A DNA stretch of 64,000 bases from Haliotis cracherodii (lineage: Eukaryota). Shown piece by piece: positions 1,856 to 38,548 of the stretch. Where the stretch lies: positions 69,688,001-69,752,000 of the forward strand of contig NW_027266319.1 of NCBI RefSeq assembly GCF_022045235.1. Reading direction: 5' to 3'. A model generated the notes under the pieces. The model saw only the letters and a program-made list of their open reading frames with translations, made no database searches and had not been told where the DNA came from. How positions within the stretch are numbered: the stretch's first letter is position 1; the number at the start of each line of letters is the position of its first letter. The position numbers and the translations under genes were made by a program.

Positions 1856-2739
1856 TCCGCGTTGAGTGTGTGGTGCCGCCAGCTTGTCATGTAAGATTAA
1901 TCCAAGGACTTCATGATTGGCAGACTGGGCGCTACTGTGGTATGCCAGAAATGTTCCTACAATAAAGATCAAATGGTGAATGATATACGATACAGGGTGG
2001 GCATTTTCCGGAGAAAACAGGAAGGAATTCCGAAAATGATGGATCTTTCTTACGAAGACGTTATTTAATCACATTAAGTTTACTTTAGTATTTTTCAAGT
2101 CCTTTAACTTATACTGTTACACAACACTGTTAGTACGTGTGTTTAAACGGTTCAAATGCAAGTCTATCTGAAGGCGGAGCATTCTGAAAGTTTGCGTCTG
2201 GTCCTCGACCACTGCAGACTGTTGTGCAGATCTGCTGACTGTTGTGCAGTACTGATCATTGGGTGTGCATCTTTTTATAACACTTCATCACAGACTTGGC
2301 AAGGACGGTGTTAAGCGCAGATGGCTGGTGAACCCTGACGATCGCCCGATACACTGCGAATTCCATTTTAACAGTTTTTTTGCAACAGACTCCGAAAACA
2401 CATTTTTGTCTATTTCCGTTATGGCGATGCAGCCCTGAGCTCATTTCCAAAATTAGATTTCGGCTACAGTTTCTTTATACAAGAAAAACTATTACTCCCA
2501 ATCCAGTCAGATCATTCGCTTGCTTTGTTTCAAGTCAAGTGTGGAGAAAGACTATTAGTATATGTCGCGCCCTCTTCCAATATCCCTTCACACGGAATGT
2601 GATATTGCGTCGGTTACAGTTGAACATTTTAGGAGACAAATTTGATGTTAATGAATGATCATTTAATGACGTTTGTTGTTTTTATACGGCCCCTTTGTCA
2701 AACAAATGTGAAGTATTAATTATTTTCTTTCTTTTCTAG

Positions 2740-3201
2740 TCTGTGTACAACTACGCCAAGGTGGCGTGCAAGTGCCATGGCGTGTCCGGCTCCTGTAGCT
2801 TGAAGACCTGTTGGCAACAGCTGCCGTCTTTCAGAGAAGTGGGGGACCGTCTCAAAGATAGATACGATGGTGCAACAGAGGTCAAGTTCAACAAAAGGGG
2901 AACAAAATTAGTGCGCAAAAATAAACGGTATAACCGCCCCTCGAGGGAAGACGTGATATATTTGGACGAGTCGCCCGACTATTGTAAGTCGGATCCTGAA
3001 ACGGGATCCTTCGGAACCATTGGCCGGGAATGCAACAGAAACTCCGAAGGAATGGATGGTTGTAACCTTCTGTGTTGCGGACGCGGCTACAACACATTCA
3101 AACGAAAACTTGTTGAGCGTTGCCATTGTAAATTTTACTGGTGTTGTTATGTGCGCTGTAAAACATGTGAGCGGATAGTAGATGTCCACACGTGCAAATA
3201 A
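2740..3201 (+). CDS. Wnt5: Wnt5 terminal coding exon (C-terminal ~153 aa); upstream exons not identified in this window
   Basis: Polypyrimidine tract and acceptor TTTTCTTTCTTTTCTAG (AG at 2738-2739), then phase-0 TCT GTG TAC AAC. The translation [25 protein letters not shown]...SPDYC...[16 protein letters not shown]...[17 protein letters not shown] has the Wnt signature (CKCHGxSGSC, palmitoleoylated Ser) and Wnt5-type residues ([35 protein letters not shown]). Stop TAA at 3199-3201. The intron position matches vertebrate WNT5A as I recall it. Confidence 0.95.
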
Positions 3202-5400
3202 TGACGTCATCGGGACGTGAGGATGACGTCATTGACTCTACTGAATGATCTCCCCACAGAAAGTGCGTCCACCCATATTGCCCGGGTGACGGAGAAGAAA
3301 ACATGCGAGAGAATTTACCAATCAGAAAATGAGGATATTGTACATCTTCCAAAAGGACCACCATCTGAGCAAGGATTACATGTATGGATATAACGTTCTG
3401 TCGATGGGGACTTGCATTTCTCAGACGAGGCACAGCGTGTTTGTGTTACTTATGAGCCGCGGAGAACCCAAAGTTGCCATGGTAACAGAACTACTTTCTC
3501 TACGAGGAAGCTATATACGGTAACTTTGGCAGTGATGTGACAATCACGGTGATGTAAGGATTAAAGGGCAGGTGACAAGTGGCATTCACACAGCCAGGAG
3601 ACGCTCTTCACCATAATCCGCCGTTATATTGGAAACAACGACACTCAAAGTAGATGCCACACAACAACAGGTCACGATGGCGATGGTCGCTGTTGACAAC
3701 TAATTTATGTAACAGTTCCTCAACTAGTGCTGATTAATTTCGATTTGGTAGTTCTTCCACACTGCAAAGTGAAGTCACCGTAAATTTGAGCTGAATTTGT
3801 ACATAGAGACCTGCACATCCGGGTTCCTGGCATTTAGGAGCATTACTGCCACGCTGTAGAATATTATCAACTTATTTCAAACGTTACTAGGTGATTAATG
3901 CGAGAAGTGTTTGTTTGTATATAGTTAAGACAGTAATCAGTAAGTACGAGATATTTATTTACCTTGTAATATATTTGTAGAGCAAAATACAGTGAACAGT
4001 TTACGTCATGACAGAAGCACGTGCAGATACCTACCGGAGACCATGGACAGGGTTAATCCAGGCTTAATTCCGGTTACCCGGTTTAATCTGGCTTGTCTCT
4101 AGCCGTACGTTATAATTGCATTTAGTTTATGTTTCTCTCAGGTAGAAATCTCTTGTAATAGTGTTCACGGATCCATGAGACACATAGAGTGAAAAACTAA
4201 ACATTGCGACTGGTCTACATACATTTGCGCAAACCTTTCACGAGAACACAAACAGGTAGTGACGCGCTTTCTATGTCAATTGAGTGTACATATTACTAGC
4301 AAGGATTGTTGTCTCGATCCGTGAATTCAGCTGCCACTAGCAACGTCCAATGGTAACTGTGCGATCTGTCTTGTTATATGGTTCCGTAATTGTAAATAAT
4401 TTTGGTTATATTTATGACCCATTTATCATTTGAATGTATCGTCATGGCACCATATATTCATCCAACCTTAATATTGTACTTACCGTTAGTCGTATCGCGT
4501 GACAACGGACACACACTGAAGTTTCAGTATCAATTTGAAATATTTATTGGATAATTTTTTCTTGCTCTGGATATGATTCATATCTCTACCACATAACATG
4601 CATAGTTAGAATCAAACAAATGCATTTTTGCAAACATTTAATTTGTTCTGATTGTCGCCTGTGCGCCGGGATGACAAGTTAGTCGTCAGCGTTTCCCACT
4701 TTCTGTCCAGTTGGAACTCACGGAAGCAGTGTTATGCCTGATGTTTGTTCGGATATGATATTATCTATGTGTTCATCATCATCAGCATTACGTCCTGTCT
4801 TAGAATCATCTCTGTTTGTGTTGTTTATTACTGTTGCTATGGTGATCACATGGTCATGTAACGTATACTATGTACATGTAAGACGTGGTGTATAGATAAT
4901 TTGTACAATACTACCGAGGGATAGCACTTCCGAACGAGAACAGGTCACGTGACCCTAATCTCCCTCATTGGATTAGGATGATGTTTTCGTCACAGCTAAA
5001 CCGAATATTTGTTGTTGAAAAAGAGATCTATTTTCGCATTTTAGCATTTCTTTCTTATTGAGTCTTATTGAGGCTGTTAATATTTCTTTTAACGATATTC
5101 ACGTGTACACCCTGAAGGTAATGACCTGTGTAGAGTGTAATATGTATTCTGGGCATAAGACCAAGCATAATACTACATACAATAGATATATTTCTTGAAA
5201 TGTTATCATTTTTTTACTATATACCATGTTGATTTTTTAGCATAAATGTGATTGCTAATTTCGGTTATCATAATACTGTATTCAGTCATTTTATTTATTT
5301 TTAGACTACGAAACCTCAGCTGCACCCGGCAAGGTGTTGTCTGAATAAACCAGGGTATGTAAGTCATTCAGATGTAAATAAATTATTAGAACACAAGAGA
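3202..5400 (+). other. Putative Wnt5 3' UTR
   Basis: Unique, repeat-free AT-rich sequence with TATTTAT and TGTAHATA motifs, ending at two AATAAA signals followed by a GT-rich tract. Repeats resume immediately after. The end point is inferred. Confidence 0.6.
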
Positions 5401-6385: not shown

Positions 6386-6479
6386 GTGAAAAAAAAAGAC
6401 TTCGTCCAGTCTTCATCATGTGTTCACAACCAAGACAGTCCGTAAGTGCTCCAGGTCTTCACGTGCAAGTAAATGGATG

Positions 6480-8700: not shown

Positions 8701-10720
8701 AGAGACAATATTAACTATGAGTATAACGAAACCATGTAAACTATGACGTATATAGAGACAATGTCAATATGATGTATTTAGAGACAATGTTAACAATCAC
8801 GTGTAGAGAGACAATAATAACTATCATGTATATAGATAGTCAATGTTAACTGTCACGTAGATAGAGAGACAACGTTAACTATCACGTGTATAGATAGACA
8901 ATGTCAACTATCACGTAGAAATAGACAATGTTAACCATCACGTATAGATAGACAGTGTTAACTATCACGTATAGATAGACAGTGTTAACTATCACGTATA
9001 GATAGACAGTGTTAACTATCACGTATAGATAGACAGTGTTAACAATCATGAATAGATAGACAGTGTTAACTATCACGTATAGATAGACAGTATTAACTAT
9101 CACGTATAGATAGACAGTGTTAACTATCACGTATAGATAGACAGTGTTAACTATCACGTATAGATAGACAGTGTTAACTATCACGTATAGATAGACAGTG
9201 TTAACTATCACGTATAGATAGACAGTGTTAACTATCACGTGTAGAGAGCCAATGTTAACTATCATGAATAGAGAGACAAATTGAACAATCATGTAAACAG
9301 GGAGACAATGTTAACAATCACATGTAGAGAAACATTGTTAACTATCACGCGTAGATAGAGGCAATGTTATCTTTCACGCGTAGAAAGACAATGTTAATTA
9401 ACGCAGATATAAAGACAATGTTAACTATGATGTGAAGAGAGACAATGTTAACTATCACGTATAGAGAGACAATGTTAACTATGACGTATAGAGAGACGAT
9501 GCTAACTACCACGTGTTGAGAGAGACAATGTTAACTATCATGTGAAGAGAGACAATGTTAACTATCACGTATATAGAGAGACAAAGTTAACTATCATGTG
9601 AAGAGAGACAATGTTAACTATCACGTATAGAGAGACAATGTTAACTATCACATGTAGAGAAACAATGTTAACTATCACGTATAAAGAGGGGCAATGTTAT
9701 CTATCACGCGTAAAGAGACAATGTTAATTAACACAGATATAAAGACAATGTTAACTATGATGTGAAGAGAGACAATGTTAACTATCACGTATAGAGAGAC
9801 AATGCTAACTACCACGTGTTGAGAGAGACAATGTTAACTATCACGTATAGAGAGTCAAATTTAACAATCACGTAAATAGGGAGAAAATGTTAACTATCAC
9901 ATTTAGAGAAACAATGTCAACTACCACGTGTTGAGAGAGACAATGTTAACTATCATGTATAGAGATAAGCAATGTTAACTATCACGTATAGAGAGACAAT
10001 GCTAACTACCACGTGTTGAGAGAGACAATGTTAACTATCATGTATAGAGAGAAGCAATGTTAACTATCACGTATAGAGAGACAATGCTAACTACCACGTG
10101 ATGAGAGAGACAATGTTAACTATCACATATATTGAGACAACGTTACCTGTCACGTATATAGAGGCAAAGTTAACTATCACGGATAGAGAGACAATGTTAT
10201 CTATCACGTATATAGAGAGACAAAGTTAACTATCACGTGTAGAGAGAGCCAATGTTAACTATCACGTATAGAGAGTCAAATTTAACAATCACGTAAATAG
10301 GGAGAAAATGTTAACTATCACATTTAGAGACACAATGTTAACTATCACGTATATAAATTGACAATGTTAACTATCACAAATATAGAGAGACACTGGTAAC
10401 TGTCCCTTACATAGAGAGACAATGTTAACTATCACGTGTAGAGAGACAATTTTACCTATCACATGTGGAGAGACAATGTTAACTGTCGCGTATATTGAGA
10501 CAATATTAAGTATCACGAATATGGATAGACAATTTTAACTGTTACGTATATAGAGACAATGTTAACTGTAACGTATATATAGAGACAATGTTATCTATCA
10601 CGAATATAGATAGACAATTTTAACTGTTACGTAGTTACGTATAGATAGACAATGTTAACTGTCACTAATCTACAGCCAATGTTAACTATCACATGTAGAG
10701 AGACAATGTTAACTATCACA
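8701..10720. repeat. Minisatellite, related 27-29-bp unit AGAGACAATGTTAACTATCACGTATAG
   Basis: Continuous with the previous array; homogeneous sub-block at 8930-9240. Confidence 0.95.
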
Positions 10721-32758: not shown

Positions 32759-33589
32759 TTACCTGAATTTAGTGTGTGAGTAGATCCGAGAGGCACATCT
32801 AGACCGCTGATGTTTGTCCACAGTTGGTAGAAAGGGATGTTGCAAAGAGTGTCCATCGAGTTATCAGTACACGGGACAGTCTACAGATTTACCGTTTGCA
32901 AAATTAATCATGTAAACGTAACATACATTTCAAATCTATAAATGTATAATTTGTAAGTCTGATGTGGCTAATCATGCTTTCTGTTCTAATTTTAATCGAA
33001 GTTTAAGGTTGGTGGAACATACACTCTTACCAACATAGCAGCAACAATATTTGCTAAATCCTTCATTGTGGCTGGACTGAAGAATTGTTTGTCGATAGTC
33101 TTACAATGTCATTTACTTCAGGATTTGACGTTTACGGTGCACGTGAATTCAGTTTATCGGAGGAGCGTTTCAGGAAAACTGTTCAGTGACTGTTTTGATA
33201 TATTTGTTTTCGGAAAATATTTCTTTTATCAAACGCATTCAGCTTCGCGGAGAACAAGGAAATGCACGTGCTTTTCCTGTATGTTTGATATAAAAGCATG
33301 TTGATTAATATTTAAAGGAGTCTAGCGCCAACCAGAGTAGTGGCTAGATGTTAGAACACATGGTCAGACTGATGATGATCATAACAGCCGGAATGACGTC
33401 GTTGGCTACAGTTTAACCTTCAGTCATATTAGGACTGCTTTAGAAAGGAAAAGCTAATATATTCGAGTGGTGTTTGCCTTTAATTGCTATGTATGTAAAT
33501 ACTTACTGTGGGATAATAAAAGGTGATTAGAAAACTTTAATTTCATTTTTCACTTTGGTAGCATAAATTTACTTTTTTTTCAAATTGAA

Positions 33590-33810
33590 AGGTCTTGTTA
33601 TTTCAATTTATTTGTTTATTTTTTCGAAATCTCGAGTTTTTCCATGTTACCTCGATTATTTTTCTTTATTTCAAGTTTATTATTTTAGTTTGTTCTCGTT
33701 ACTTCGATTACTTTCTGGTTATTTAAAGTTTATTTAAAAAAATCGAAATTTCGATTATCTTCTCGTTATTTCGATCACTTTCTCGTTATTTAAAGTTCAT
33801 TTCGTTACCT
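33590..33810. repeat. AT-rich TCTCGTTATTTCGA-type repeats (transposon-derived; related to 37652-37993)
   Basis: Repeated CTCGTTATTT / TCGATTA motifs, the reverse complement of AAATAACGAGAAAATAATCGA in the 37.7-38.0 kb block. Confidence 0.7.
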
Positions 33811-34570: not shown

Positions 34571-34789
34571 GATCCGGGGTAGAATAGGTCTTCAGCAGCT
34601 CATGCTTGCTGTAAAAGGCGACTATGATTGTCGTAAGAGGCGACTAACGGGATCGGGTGCGGATCCCAATTGCGTGGATCGATGCTCATTACATCAACAC
34701 TGGATTGTCTGGTCCAGACTCGATTACTTACAGACCGCCGTCATATAGCTGGAATATTGCTGAGTGCGGCGTTAAACAACAAACCAACC
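34571..34789 (+). mobile_element. V-SINE/RUDI-like SINE with an internal deletion
   Basis: Matches the copies at 1-78 and 38410-38548; tail CATATAGCTGGAATATTGCTGAGTGCGGCGTTAAACAACAAACCAACC; imperfect flanking repeat ATGG(T/C)TGTAGCCA. Confidence 0.8.
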
Positions 34790-35300: not shown

Positions 35301-35654
35301 CACTTTCGCCGCTGGGTGAATATACTATTATCACTGAGTTTTGCTATCACAAAAACGTATCTGATGCTGACCTCTGCCATCATGTTATATGTTACCATTG
35401 AATATTGTACTACCACTCTATTGTGTACTGCCATTGTATTTACTGTGCAGTCATTTGTGTTGATGTGTAAACTAGATCTTGTAATACATTTGTTCATTGT
35501 ATACCACTTGTTAGTTGTTTGTTGGTTTCACATTTAGTTCTTATATGTTCAGATTTCTGGGTTAACATTTTTTAATTTCAATTTGGAAATCGACAATAGC
35601 ATCACAAATCCTATTGACCTGTGAACGAAGTGTTTCTCTGTCAGTAATTGTAAT

Positions 35655-36095
35655 TGGAATAGGCCCGTTTACAGCCTCAGACGTATCCAGACCAACAAAC
35701 CTGATCTTGTCCTTTTTGATAAATCCAATGAAATATTTTATACCATTGAATGCTCTGTCCCTTTTGACACTAATGTGATTGACAAGATTGAGGAAAAACA
35801 TGGCAAATATGCGGACCTCGCTTTCGAAATGTCACGCTTGCATCCCAAGTACCATATTATCTGACTCCCCATTGTTCTTGGTGCCTTAGGTTTGGTACCT
35901 CCTAATCTGTTGACTGACATCGGGAGAGTACCTGGGTTTGCTTCCAGGAATACAACCCTTTTGACAATCTGGGTAATGCAGAAGGCTGCAGTGTTGGGGT
36001 GTCTTCACATTCTCCGAAAATATGGACTAGGCAGCGCTTCCTGGGAGAAGTCCCATTCGCTGTCTGGGCTGCGTGTAGAGGGGCAAGGGCCCTGA
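35655..36095 (+). pseudogene. R4/Dong-clade non-LTR retrotransposon, C-terminal restriction-like endonuclease fragment
   Basis: WNRPVYSLRRIQTNKPDLVLFDK...IECSVPFD...EEKHGKYADLAFE...*LPIVLGALGLV...MQKAAVLGCLHILRK has the PD..D/E..K..KY.L restriction-like endonuclease pattern; one in-frame stop. Confidence 0.85.
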
Positions 36096-36151
36096 ACTGA
36101 TGATGAGACTAAACAATGCCAGGATCACTCAAACCCTCTTTGCTGCATCTT

Positions 36152-36291
36152 NNNNNNNNNNNNNNNNNNNNNNNNNNNNNNNNNNNNNNNNNNNNNNNNN
36201 NNNNNNNNNNNNNNNNNNNNNNNNNNNNNNNNNNNNNNNNNNNNNNNNNNNNNNNNNNNNNNNNNNNNNNNNNNNNNNNNNNNNNNNNNNN
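36152..36291. other. Assembly gap (N run)
   Basis: 140 Ns. Confidence 1.
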
Positions 36292-36344
36292 TCATATAGC
36301 GTCAATTTCCAGATCTGGTGGTCAGAGAGAGAGAGTTCAGTGAG

Positions 36345-37235
36345 CGTTGGGGGCGGATTGGAACAAACAGGTTTTGAATAGTCCCTGAAAGTGGTTGATA
36401 TCTTTGGCACTTTTGATGTTGACGGGAATGCTGTTCCAAAGTTTTGCGCCGCCTTTGCAAAGCATCGGTCACCGAGTGACATAGTCCTGGTTTGGCGCAC
36501 AACACAAACATGAGCTGAGTGTTACAAGACCTGACGAGTCGTTCTGGTTGACATAGCTGCATCACTTCACTGATGAGGGTGGACCGACGTCATGAAGTGT
36601 TTTGTGTACTAAAACAAGTAGTTTTGTGACGGGGAGCCAGTGCAGTTTCTTAAGTAACGGTGTTATATCCCCTCCAGGACGGGGTACCACTCTGGCAGCT
36701 ACGTTTTAAACACGCTGAACCTTTGCGATTTGGGATTAAGGCAGCCCATATAGAAGAGCATCACAATAATCCAGCAGAGATATCACGAAAGCCTGAATGA
36801 GACGTGCAGCTTCGAGACTGTAGTATGTCAGTGTGCAGACGTTACTGTGACCATCGAGGCTGAAAGCCTGTGTGACCCCATTGAAGCCATGTCTGGAGGG
36901 TTCCAAGTGCGGTAAGGCAGAAGGTCAAGATCTGGATAGCCACACAGCAACAGTACCCTTTACTGTCAAACGCAAACTTAAAACAATCAATACTAACATG
37001 AGTAACATAATTTCTGTCTTCTTTTAAGGCATTGTAGCATTCATTATCAGTCCATAAACATTCTACATGTTGGCGCACTCCCCGTTCCGCAGTGGTAGGT
37101 CGGAGGAGAGTATCATCCATAAAACTCCCCACACGAGTCCCTGATGTCTCGTTTCACAATTCATCGGCAGCTGGAGTTTTGAAATGATCCAAATCAATGT
37201 CCCTAATTATATCAGAAATAAGGAACATGTCTAAG
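36345..37235 (-). pseudogene. L2-clade LINE ORF2 relic with a large internal deletion
   Basis: Minus strand: linker IRDIDLDHFK...W.DNEC..ALKE.R (37215-37010), then LIQAFVISLLDYCDALLYGLP...NVAARVV...ITPLLKKLHWLPV...RTMSLGDRCFAKAA (36825-36400), typical of the L2 RT C-terminus. Confidence 0.8.
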
Positions 37236-37240
37236 ATAAC

Positions 37241-38380
37241 ATGGGTTGATCTGGCAAATTAACTCTATATCATGGTCTGCGAGACCCATTAGGGTTCTAG
37301 GGAATTTGCCATTCAGTTGTACTAAACAACCCGAGCACTATTGATCTGCATCAGCAATTGCTGGTTCGGTTTCCAAATCTTGGCGATAATGACGTAATAG
37401 TCCCGGGGAGTGCTCGCCCAGTCTTTACAACCAGTTTGCATTCATCCGACACCAAAGGGGCGGTTGTTGGGAACTTAAGTCATTCAGTTGTAAAGATAAG
37501 TGGTGATGAGGTAATGTCTACAGACGACTCAGTGTTGCAGGGATCTCTGCAGCCCCGACAGTGACCGCACATGTATCGTATCGAGGGTGACACAAGCAAT
37601 GGTCTATGATCAGGCACCGCGGCACAGAACGGTTCACAAGGACAAAAGTGATATAAACTTGAAATAACGAGACAATAATCGAAGTAATGAGAAACAACTG
37701 GAAATTTTGAAAAAGTAAACAAATAATTGAAATAACTAGAAATTTCGATTAAAAAATGAATAAGATTATGCCACAAAAGAGTTTTTTCTCGTTACTTTCG
37801 TTATTTTCTCATAAATCAAGGTTATTTAAAAAAACCTCGAAATTCCGAGAAAATAATCAAAGTTACGGAAAAAAACGAAATTTTTGAGTTTTTGAAATAG
37901 ACTTAATATAACGAGAAAATATTCGAAATTACGAGTTTTTGATATAAACTTGAAATAACGAGAAAATAATCGAAATCACGAAAATATTATCGAACAAAAG
38001 TGACATGGTAGGGAACATCAAACGACATGTGCCGCCAAATCGATGAAGGATATTAAACTGCTTCCAAGACCCTTTGCATTTTGGTACAGTCTATTCCAGA
38101 AACCCAGTTTATCTACAAACACCATAGTACCAAAGTAGATGTGAACATGAAGGGAGTACCTGACCAGTCACACAGTCAAGGCATGCAGGCATATCAACAA
38201 TGGGATGAGGTGAAACAGCTACCAGCTTTAAAGCTTCATCCCTATGTTTCTATGATCGTCAAAGACCTGGTTCCAGCAGATATCTCACAAGCCGATTTTC
38301 TAACTTCAAAGTACAACAGATGGTGGTCAGTTATATGTTAACAACCCAGAAGTCATGTGACGATGGGCGTAACCATACCG
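37241..38380 (+). pseudogene. Degenerate Polinton/Maverick (adintovirus-like) major capsid protein gene fragment; candidate endogenous viral element
   Basis: Collinear blocks LRDPLG..HSVVLNNPSTIDLHQQLLVRFPNLGDNDVIVPGSAR..KISGDEVMSTDDS / AMVYDQAPRHRTVHKDKSD / KVDVNMKGVPDQSHSQGMQAYQQWDEVK...KDL..ADISQADFLTSKY match, from memory, capsid-like proteins of invertebrate Polinton-type elements. Not verified by a search. Confidence 0.6.
37652..37993. mobile_element. AT-rich repeat insertion with a 10-bp flanking duplication, inside the capsid-like ORF
   Basis: ACAAAAGTGA at 37642-37651 and 37994-38003; internal AAATAACGAGAAAATAATCGAAAT repeats in both orientations. Confidence 0.75.
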
Positions 38381-38409
38381 ACTTGTAGTCAACCTATTTT
38401 ACCGCAACA

Positions 38410-38548
38410 TTTGTTTGTTTTTTGCTTAACGTAACACTCTGCAATATTCCAGCTATATGACGGCGGTCTGTAAATAATTGAGTCTGATAACTGAATCCAG
38501 TGATTGACATCATGAGCATCGATGCACGCAAGTGGGATACGATGACAC
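38410..38548 (-). mobile_element. V-SINE/RUDI-like SINE, 3' half
   Basis: GCAATATTCCAGCTATATGACGGCGGTCTGTAA is the reverse complement of 34728-34760. Confidence 0.85.

Follow-up and report, generated by a model that had tools for sequence, protein, structure and literature searches.

A dead Polinton-type capsid gene in the genome of Haliotis cracherodii and its intact relatives in virus-like elements

Within the 64,000-nucleotide stretch of Haliotis cracherodii DNA analyzed here (the window), the plus strand carries, between positions 37256 and 38332, collinear fragments of a gene that are 50–66% identical to a family of intact proteins of ~431 residues (Table 1). When the open stretch at 37301–37561 was used as an 87-residue query against longer proteins, 360 of 403 candidates matched at E ≤ 0.001; identity to the query was 56–66% in the best 120 of these 360 matches, which are mostly unnamed proteins of 421–438 residues. 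The 75 full-length proteins among these 120 were used as tBLASTn queries and gave three collinear matches, which place family residues 9–106 at 37256–37531, residues 243–261 at 37596–37652 and residues 292–368 at 38099–38323, with no further match at E < 0.05 anywhere in the 64-kb window. A capsid profile built from 58 intact relatives and run on six frames of the 64 kb matched at 37256–37537 (profile positions 9–108, 103.7 bits, E 1e-31) and at 38102–38332 (profile positions 293–371, 58.4 bits, E 7e-18), and the top score outside the capsid locus was -1.7 bits. Among the relatives, the window pieces are nearest to P0019, P0026, the capsid of locus L001, P0020 and P0004.

A preliminary description of this DNA had named two short ORFs, at 37358 and 38081, which proved to be TTG-started parts of open stretches at 37301–37564 and 38057–38341, and the peptides that it quoted are all present in the sequence on the plus strand. 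It had also joined the pieces into one collinear protein once an insertion is removed, a reconstruction that holds for the outer and middle pieces and that two shorter pieces fit by position only. The middle piece scored 48.7 against its family residues, and none of 60 shuffles exceeded 23.9. Two 13-codon pieces, at 38005–38043 and 38040–38078, fall at residues 262–274 and 274–286, as collinearity predicts; their scores lie within the shuffle range (15.0 vs a maximum of 27.6, and 14.4 vs a maximum of 20.2), and they are weakly placed as capsid pieces, by position. Past 38324, three 22-codon frames gave no match to the family, and homology ends near residue 371 of 431. A Pfam scan of seven window pieces gave no match for the three capsid pieces. 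The bounds of the insertion are exactly those given in the preliminary description and are set by two identical 10-bp repeats. Its GC content is 0.24, vs 0.43–0.48 in the adjoining capsid pieces; a second copy, 75–84% alike, lies on the minus strand of the window at 33553–33803, and related copies pile up at high depth in the contigs of other species. With an in-frame stop, a deletion, an insertion, frame changes and a truncated 3' end, the window copy of the capsid gene is dead; residues ~109–242 (~134 codons) and ~372–431 (~60 codons) have been lost from it.

Table 1. Positions in the window of the capsid pseudogene, its lesions and the neighboring repeat.
Feature	Position	Strand	Remarks
Capsid pseudogene 5' piece	37256..37537	+	residues ~9–108; most of the first half of jelly roll 1; 103.7 bits
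In-frame stop within the 5' piece	37298	+	sequence
Junction without family match	37538..37595	.	~134 codons (residues ~109–242) absent; bridged in 3/3 other species' contigs
Capsid pseudogene middle piece	37596..37651	+	residues ~243–261; frame differs from 5' piece; 48.7 vs shuffle maximum 23.9
Left 10-bp direct repeat	37642..37651	.	identical to right copy; likely target-site duplication of the insert
352-bp AT-rich dispersed-repeat insertion	37652..38003	.	includes right 10-bp repeat copy, 37994–38003
Decayed stretch	38004..38098	+	residues ~262–290 across frame changes; position fits, scores within shuffle range
Capsid pseudogene 3' piece	38099..38332	+	residues ~292–371; final ~60 residues not found; 58.4 bits
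SINE-like repeat of high copy number, directly beyond the pseudogene's 3' end and outside the virus remnant	38410..38540	.	second copy 34660–34788; thousands-fold read depth

The SINE-like repeat that follows the remnant is presumably of a gastropod type. Upstream, an assembly gap (36152–36291) lies 1 kb from the pseudogene, and decayed ends of non-LTR retrotransposons are found at 36300–36850 on the minus strand and at 35625–36100 on the plus strand, which from their motifs we take to resemble the end of an L2/CR1-type ORF2 and a restriction-like endonuclease end, respectively; Pfam gave no match for 16 frames from the flanks. Tandem repeats make up much of the remaining window. A Wnt exon at 2740–3201 on the plus strand closes the coding sequence of a Wnt5-type gene, with Wnt-5a as its best match in the PDB (E 4e-66) and Wnt-3 next (8e-53), in agreement with the earlier statement that the remnant lies ~34 kb downstream of the Wnt5 coding end.

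The capsid family comprises 2,834 representatives at E ≤ 0.001 and 397 at 1e-30. The fold of P0004, an intact natural relative, was modeled with AF2 from a 58-row alignment (pLDDT 79.3, pTM 0.83), and its best Foldseek matches in the PDB were the capsids of PBCV-1, iridovirus, mavirus and Sputnik (E 7e-15, 9–14% identity). VIA-align superposed the model on the PBCV-1 capsid chain with a Z score of 23.9 (rmsd 3.2, 336 residues aligned), and viral capsid or scaffold proteins filled the top 16 rows (Z 7.6–23.9), the next row standing at Z 5.7 with unrelated folds. The family is therefore predicted to adopt a double jelly roll, and this prediction may be carried to the window pieces by their 50–66% identity. 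The residues missing from the pseudogene correspond in the P0004 model to the later strands of jelly roll 1 and the last strands of jelly roll 2; as both jelly rolls lack strands, presumably no capsid protein could be made, to judge from the relative's model.

Pfam Capsid_N gave weak matches in all six close members and in 17 of 52 distant ones, two of them above the cut-off, and PF21738 (DJR-like) matched none of the six close or the 52 distant members. The top 50 rows in BFVD are 8–14% identical to the family capsid, and one of these rows, at 12%, is named Adintovirus. Searching the ESM Atlas with the 87-residue piece gave leads that were all below 0.9, and P0004 led to viral clusters at 0.97–0.98, in some of which 10–24% of the members carry capsid Pfams, which we treat as no more than a lead. 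When A1, A3 and A4 were compared with the sequences in the PDB, nothing fell below E 0.07, and INPHARED phages gave no match. In IMG/VR, none of 66 pattern matches to the capsid was confirmed and no close relative was found, no match to the pPolB was confirmed, and two of 95 pattern matches to the ATPase were distant homologs (24–26% identity); A3 diverges too far to yield search patterns.

The closest named relatives of the capsid are proteins filed under 'Ca. Thiodiazotropha' MAGs (lucinid-clam symbionts), and the more distant members include many hypothetical proteins of the octocoral Paramuricea clavata, ~29–30% identical to P0004. A FastTree capsid tree was computed from 79 rows, with no outside references and with the window pieces left out. 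Several capsid and ATPase genes of the elements have been deposited as bacterial MAG proteins (P0037, P0064, P0368, P0392, P0393, P0405, L081 and L082), under the names 'Ca. Thiodiazotropha', Saprospiraceae and Burkholderiales. These are likely to reflect binning contamination, the Thiodiazotropha ones probably being host DNA in clam-symbiont bins. A literature search, with most subscription papers outside its reach, found no description of the capsid family.

The intact relatives of the pseudogene were located by a metagenome scan, in which 147 of 234 pattern matches were confirmed and 80 loci kept, and two loci from MAG contigs brought the total to 82. Their capsid genes are single uninterrupted ORFs, and they sit in elements of 13–14.5 kb with a highly conserved gene order. 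Terminal inverted repeats (TIRs) were found in two of the seven loci examined, namely L005 (14,475 bp; TIR of 99 nt, 100% identical) and L008 (13,235 bp; TIR of 133 nt, 99% identical). AGT repeats at the ends are a trait of Polintons, and a 6-bp target-site duplication is a feature of Polintons/Mavericks; the left ends of L005 and L008 carry AGT repeats, and both contigs stop inside the right TIR. In L005, Pox_A32, rve and DNA_pol_B_2 all exceeded their Pfam cut-offs and a fibre-like protein is also encoded. Across the loci, Pox_A32 was above the cut-off in L001, L005 and L008, DNA_pol_B_2 (pPolB) in L004, L005, L008 and L014, and the rve integrase in L001 and L005. The ATPase cluster is present in 37 of the 82 loci, many of which are too short to show it. 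Two marks of the Polinton-like supergroup (Polisuviricotina) are thus seen in the intact relatives, the predicted double-jelly-roll fold of the capsid and the neighboring A32-like packaging ATPase. A conserved gene of ~230 residues, which by its motif is a candidate for a single-jelly-roll component of the capsid module, had no Pfam, PHROG or PDB sequence match. Multicopy clusters occur on long contigs, one with 229 members (contigs up to 758 kb) and another with 20 (contigs up to 12 Mb), as we would expect for elements in animal assemblies. The preliminary description had proposed a double-jelly-roll capsid of Polinton type, and the predicted fold of the relative together with the A32 ATPase, rve integrase, pPolB and TIRs of the intact elements bears this out.

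The relatives vary in their replication and integration genes. In L001 and L075, an SF1-helicase-type replicase stands in place of pPolB; this 1,209-residue protein with a C-terminal endonuclease VII-like domain is encoded on the minus strand at 9967–13596 of L001 and at 6464–8734 of L075, in elements that are otherwise syntenic. The integrase is present in three of five loci that span its position and absent from L008 and L014, where no integrase gene lies between a conserved 141-residue gene and pPolB (region 8441–12617 of L008, 3645–9109 of L014), despite the 133-nt TIRs of L008. In L014, the usual place of the integrase is taken by a second ATPase of the A32-like type, hydrophobic at its N-terminus. 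Elements of the L008/L014 type are possibly non-integrating or helper-dependent members.

Complete relatives seem to lack a maturation protease of the adenain/Ulp1 type, as far as sequence comparison can tell, with the caveat of a 429-residue gene that has conserved Cys and His residues. No protease family was found by Pfam among 13 of the 15 main ORFs of L005 or the 10 ORFs of L008, none was found in the relatives with PHROGs or NCBIfam, and a strict pattern for the protease catalytic motif matched in none of seven loci. The largest uncovered internal gaps in the relatives, 243–255 nt, are too small for a protease gene. No phospholipase family was matched in the complete relatives either. The 429-residue gene, at 2493–3782 on the plus strand of L005, has homologs of ~425 residues in 32 loci, belongs to no known family, and combines an invariant Cys/His cluster with a C-terminal hydrophobic helix. 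Its model is of low confidence (pLDDT 50.7, best Z 4.5, no BFVD match under E 0.2), and a protease fold was not among the fold matches listed for this low-confidence model.

The pseudogene locus itself retains neither a TIR nor an integrase scar, a target duplication of the element or another of its genes. As the preliminary description had noted, the window holds no other gene of the element: 15 profiles of the intact relatives' other genes found nothing in it (best E 0.22), and when 846 ORFs of the 82 relative loci were compared with the window, the capsid pieces were the only matches. An intact or active Polinton-type element at this locus was accordingly rejected, as the 15 profiles were null and the capsid gene is broken.

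The history of the locus was examined in 21 sequencing runs, no RNA run being among those listed, compared by the words that they share with it. Six runs under the same species label (3 samples, 2 studies) contain 73–94% of the locus words, and 11 runs under three other species labels contain 27–28%. Orthology was assessed in one run from each other species (X7, X11 and X17), whose contigs were aligned to the window. The X7 contig covers 36653–37678 with 28 differences in 1,024 positions, the X11 contig 36559–37682 with 35 in 1,140, and two X17 contigs cover 36623–37279 (23 differences in 657) and 37281–37682 (8 in 399), so that in all three other species single contigs link the host flank through the 5' piece to the deletion junction, at 2–3.5% difference. 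Insert contigs are present in all three. The right junction of the insert is bridged in three of three, and the left in two of three by a 31-letter rule, with 27 letters in the third; among the 15 joints listed, none skips the entire insert. From 37948/37953 to 38455/38458, the other species show 35–41 differences in ~512 positions. Each contig covers part of the locus, and none runs from one end of it to the other. In the raw-read run X18, of which 1 in 100 reads was sampled, no read fell on the capsid bins, a sampling too sparse to bear on presence.

Thus, the locus, its deletion and its insertion are common to three other species at 2–8% difference, which implies that both events took place before the four species split and that the gene was by then dead. 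Differences between species amount to 7–8% in the 3' part (37948–38458) and 2–3.5% in the 5' part (36560–37682); within the latter, the upstream host flank differs by 3–3.5% and the 5' capsid piece by 2–3%. Among the 40 of 194 difference rows listed, nine fall in the coding pieces and eight of these are non-synonymous, which fits neutral decay, this small sample making for a weak test of selection. Most capsid bins are at or near single-contig depth in the contigs of the other species, which suggests few close copies. Bin 38175–38249, in the 3' piece, has a contig depth raised ~40-fold in all three other species, possibly due to a short repeat or to further copies. The broken gene, its orthologs in three other species and the element context of the relatives agree with the proposal of the preliminary description that this is a fossil of an integrating dsDNA virus lineage.

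We propose, with a probability of roughly 78%, that a Polinton-type virus integrated in the ancestral germline via its rve integrase, that deletions left about two thirds of its capsid gene, and that host repeats inserted in and around the remainder. The whole element would have entered by its own integrase, as the gene content of the relatives suggests; large deletions would then have taken out its other genes along with a third of the capsid gene, a host repeat would have inserted into the capsid gene with a 10-bp duplication, and no protein would be made from what remained. As every terminal mark and every second gene has gone from the locus, we infer rather than see the entry of a whole element, and the two of five integrase-spanning relatives without the gene (L008 and L014) count against this step. 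These integrase-less relatives would suit the capture of a fragment only, in which a piece of viral DNA or a capsid transcript was taken up via break repair or by a host retroelement. The capsid gene is indeed alone detectable in 64 kb, its match begins within ~9 codons of the family N-terminus, and LINE-like and SINE-like remnants lie on the flanks, the LINE-like ones presumably so from their motifs. However, the internal deletion of ~400 bp shows that large deletions act at the site, the capsid start in the relatives adjoins a variable N-terminal part of the neighbor gene that would be hard to detect once decayed, and the 3' piece has no poly(A) tail; we therefore consider capture of a fragment the main rival, though an unlikely one.

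Whatever the mode of entry, the host might have kept the fragment for use, as a source of antiviral small RNA or as a regulatory element downstream of Wnt5. Persistence in four species, with a 5' piece only 2–3% different, could be read in this way, but the upstream host flank is similarly conserved, the 3' piece is not, the listed coding changes are mostly non-synonymous, and a stop, a deletion and an insertion interrupt the gene, which makes host use very improbable. The chance that contamination, misassembly or a host gene family accounts for the locus is smaller still, close to negligible. Although the assembly gap upstream and the filing of some relatives in bacterial MAGs might raise a suspicion of artefact, six runs from three samples and two studies of the same species label contain most of the locus words, and the contigs of three other species link the locus to host flanks, which largely refutes it. 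A host gene was rejected because the intact relatives are uninterrupted single ORFs in TIR-bounded virus-like genomes.

Comparison with known systems indicates that the pseudogene works like the remnant of a Polinton/Maverick, an element class whose standard gene set has been outlined (PMC11161782). Like group 2 Polintons/Mavericks (Polintoviricetes), the family combines animal hosts, a double-jelly-roll capsid, A32 ATPase, rve integrase and TIRs. Its replicase alternates between pPolB and the SF1-helicase type, and pPolB/helicase switching is given as a trait of group 2 in a recent preprint (Bellas & Sommaruga 2026, 10.64898/2026.06.19.733378); unlike group 2 Mavericks, the relatives have no detected maturation protease or phospholipase. 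With adintoviruses, which include decayed germline relics, one of them in humans (Starrett et al. 2021, PMC8502044), they share mid-size linear dsDNA, pPolB (PF03175), rve integrase, packaging ATPase and a double-jelly-roll capsid. However, the adintovirus survey was baited with the adenain protease (PMC8502044), which the relatives seem to lack, and the sole Adintovirus row among the top 50 in BFVD is 12% identical. On these two grounds, the label of adintovirus in the strict sense, which the preliminary description had offered among others, was rejected.

Polinton-like viruses (PLVs) are described as having MCP, mCP and ATPase and no maturation protease, and most of them as having protist hosts and lacking pPolB and rve integrase (PMC5499653). 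The relatives resemble PLVs (Aquintoviricetes) in that no maturation protease was found, with the same caveat of the 429-residue gene, and differ from most PLVs in that they usually carry both pPolB and rve integrase. According to the same preprint, Aquintoviruses are the nearest neighbors of some ATPases found in Octocorallia, Hydrozoa and Bivalvia, and the elements that carry these are the only animal ones outside the Maverick groups (10.64898/2026.06.19.733378). The octocoral and lucinid-clam-associated capsid members match two of these three host groups, which fits identity with this animal Aquintovirus-like branch and does not prove it.

As an object, the window locus is of the same kind as the endogenous dsDNA viral regions surveyed in invertebrates. 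In Zhao et al. (10.1101/2025.04.19.649669), 781,111 such regions are counted in 7,103 assemblies, nearly all of them assigned to Orthopolintovirales or PLVs, with 107,631 regions in bivalves, 40.8% of which are preliminarily PLV; in corals, 4,862 elements are described by Stephens et al. 2024 (PMC11131425), and some of them cluster with PLVs. Members of the family are probably already inside these data sets, undescribed. These surveys require that viral ORFs lie in a cluster or that three core genes be present (10.1101/2025.04.19.649669; PMC11131425), so that a lone broken capsid gene would likely be missed. Unlike the surveyed regions, the window locus can be dated relative to the split of four species.

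Polinton-type fossils are common in invertebrates, and the locus itself is therefore ordinary: invertebrate genomes contain hundreds of thousands of such remnants, and this one is a dead piece of a capsid gene. Its presence in four species sets a minimum age for infection of the host group, in relative terms and with no absolute date. The virus lineage behind the fossil appears to be poorly described, and on sequence comparison the missing maturation protease and the want of a close adintovirus hexon match suggest that it may belong to a barely described animal branch of PLVs. In its fullest form, this idea holds that the lineage is a large, distinct and undescribed branch of Polinton-type viruses in marine invertebrates, compact (13–14.5 kb) and protease-less, which belongs neither to the two Maverick groups nor to the adintoviruses; that its members swap pPolB and helicase, are in some cases integrase-less and still TIR-bounded, and share a conserved gene block for membrane and coiled-coil proteins that fit no known family; and that it represents the animal branch of the protist PLVs. 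We hold this tentatively, at somewhat less than even odds. The 2026 preprint covers the animal PLV branch in two sentences (10.64898/2026.06.19.733378), and if the window family does belong to it, the locus would preserve a dated trace of that branch in the germline. More broadly, intact elements of the family abound in the assemblies of marine invertebrates, where surveys baited with the protease would have missed them, and the family may link animal Polintons to the polinton-like viruses of protists.
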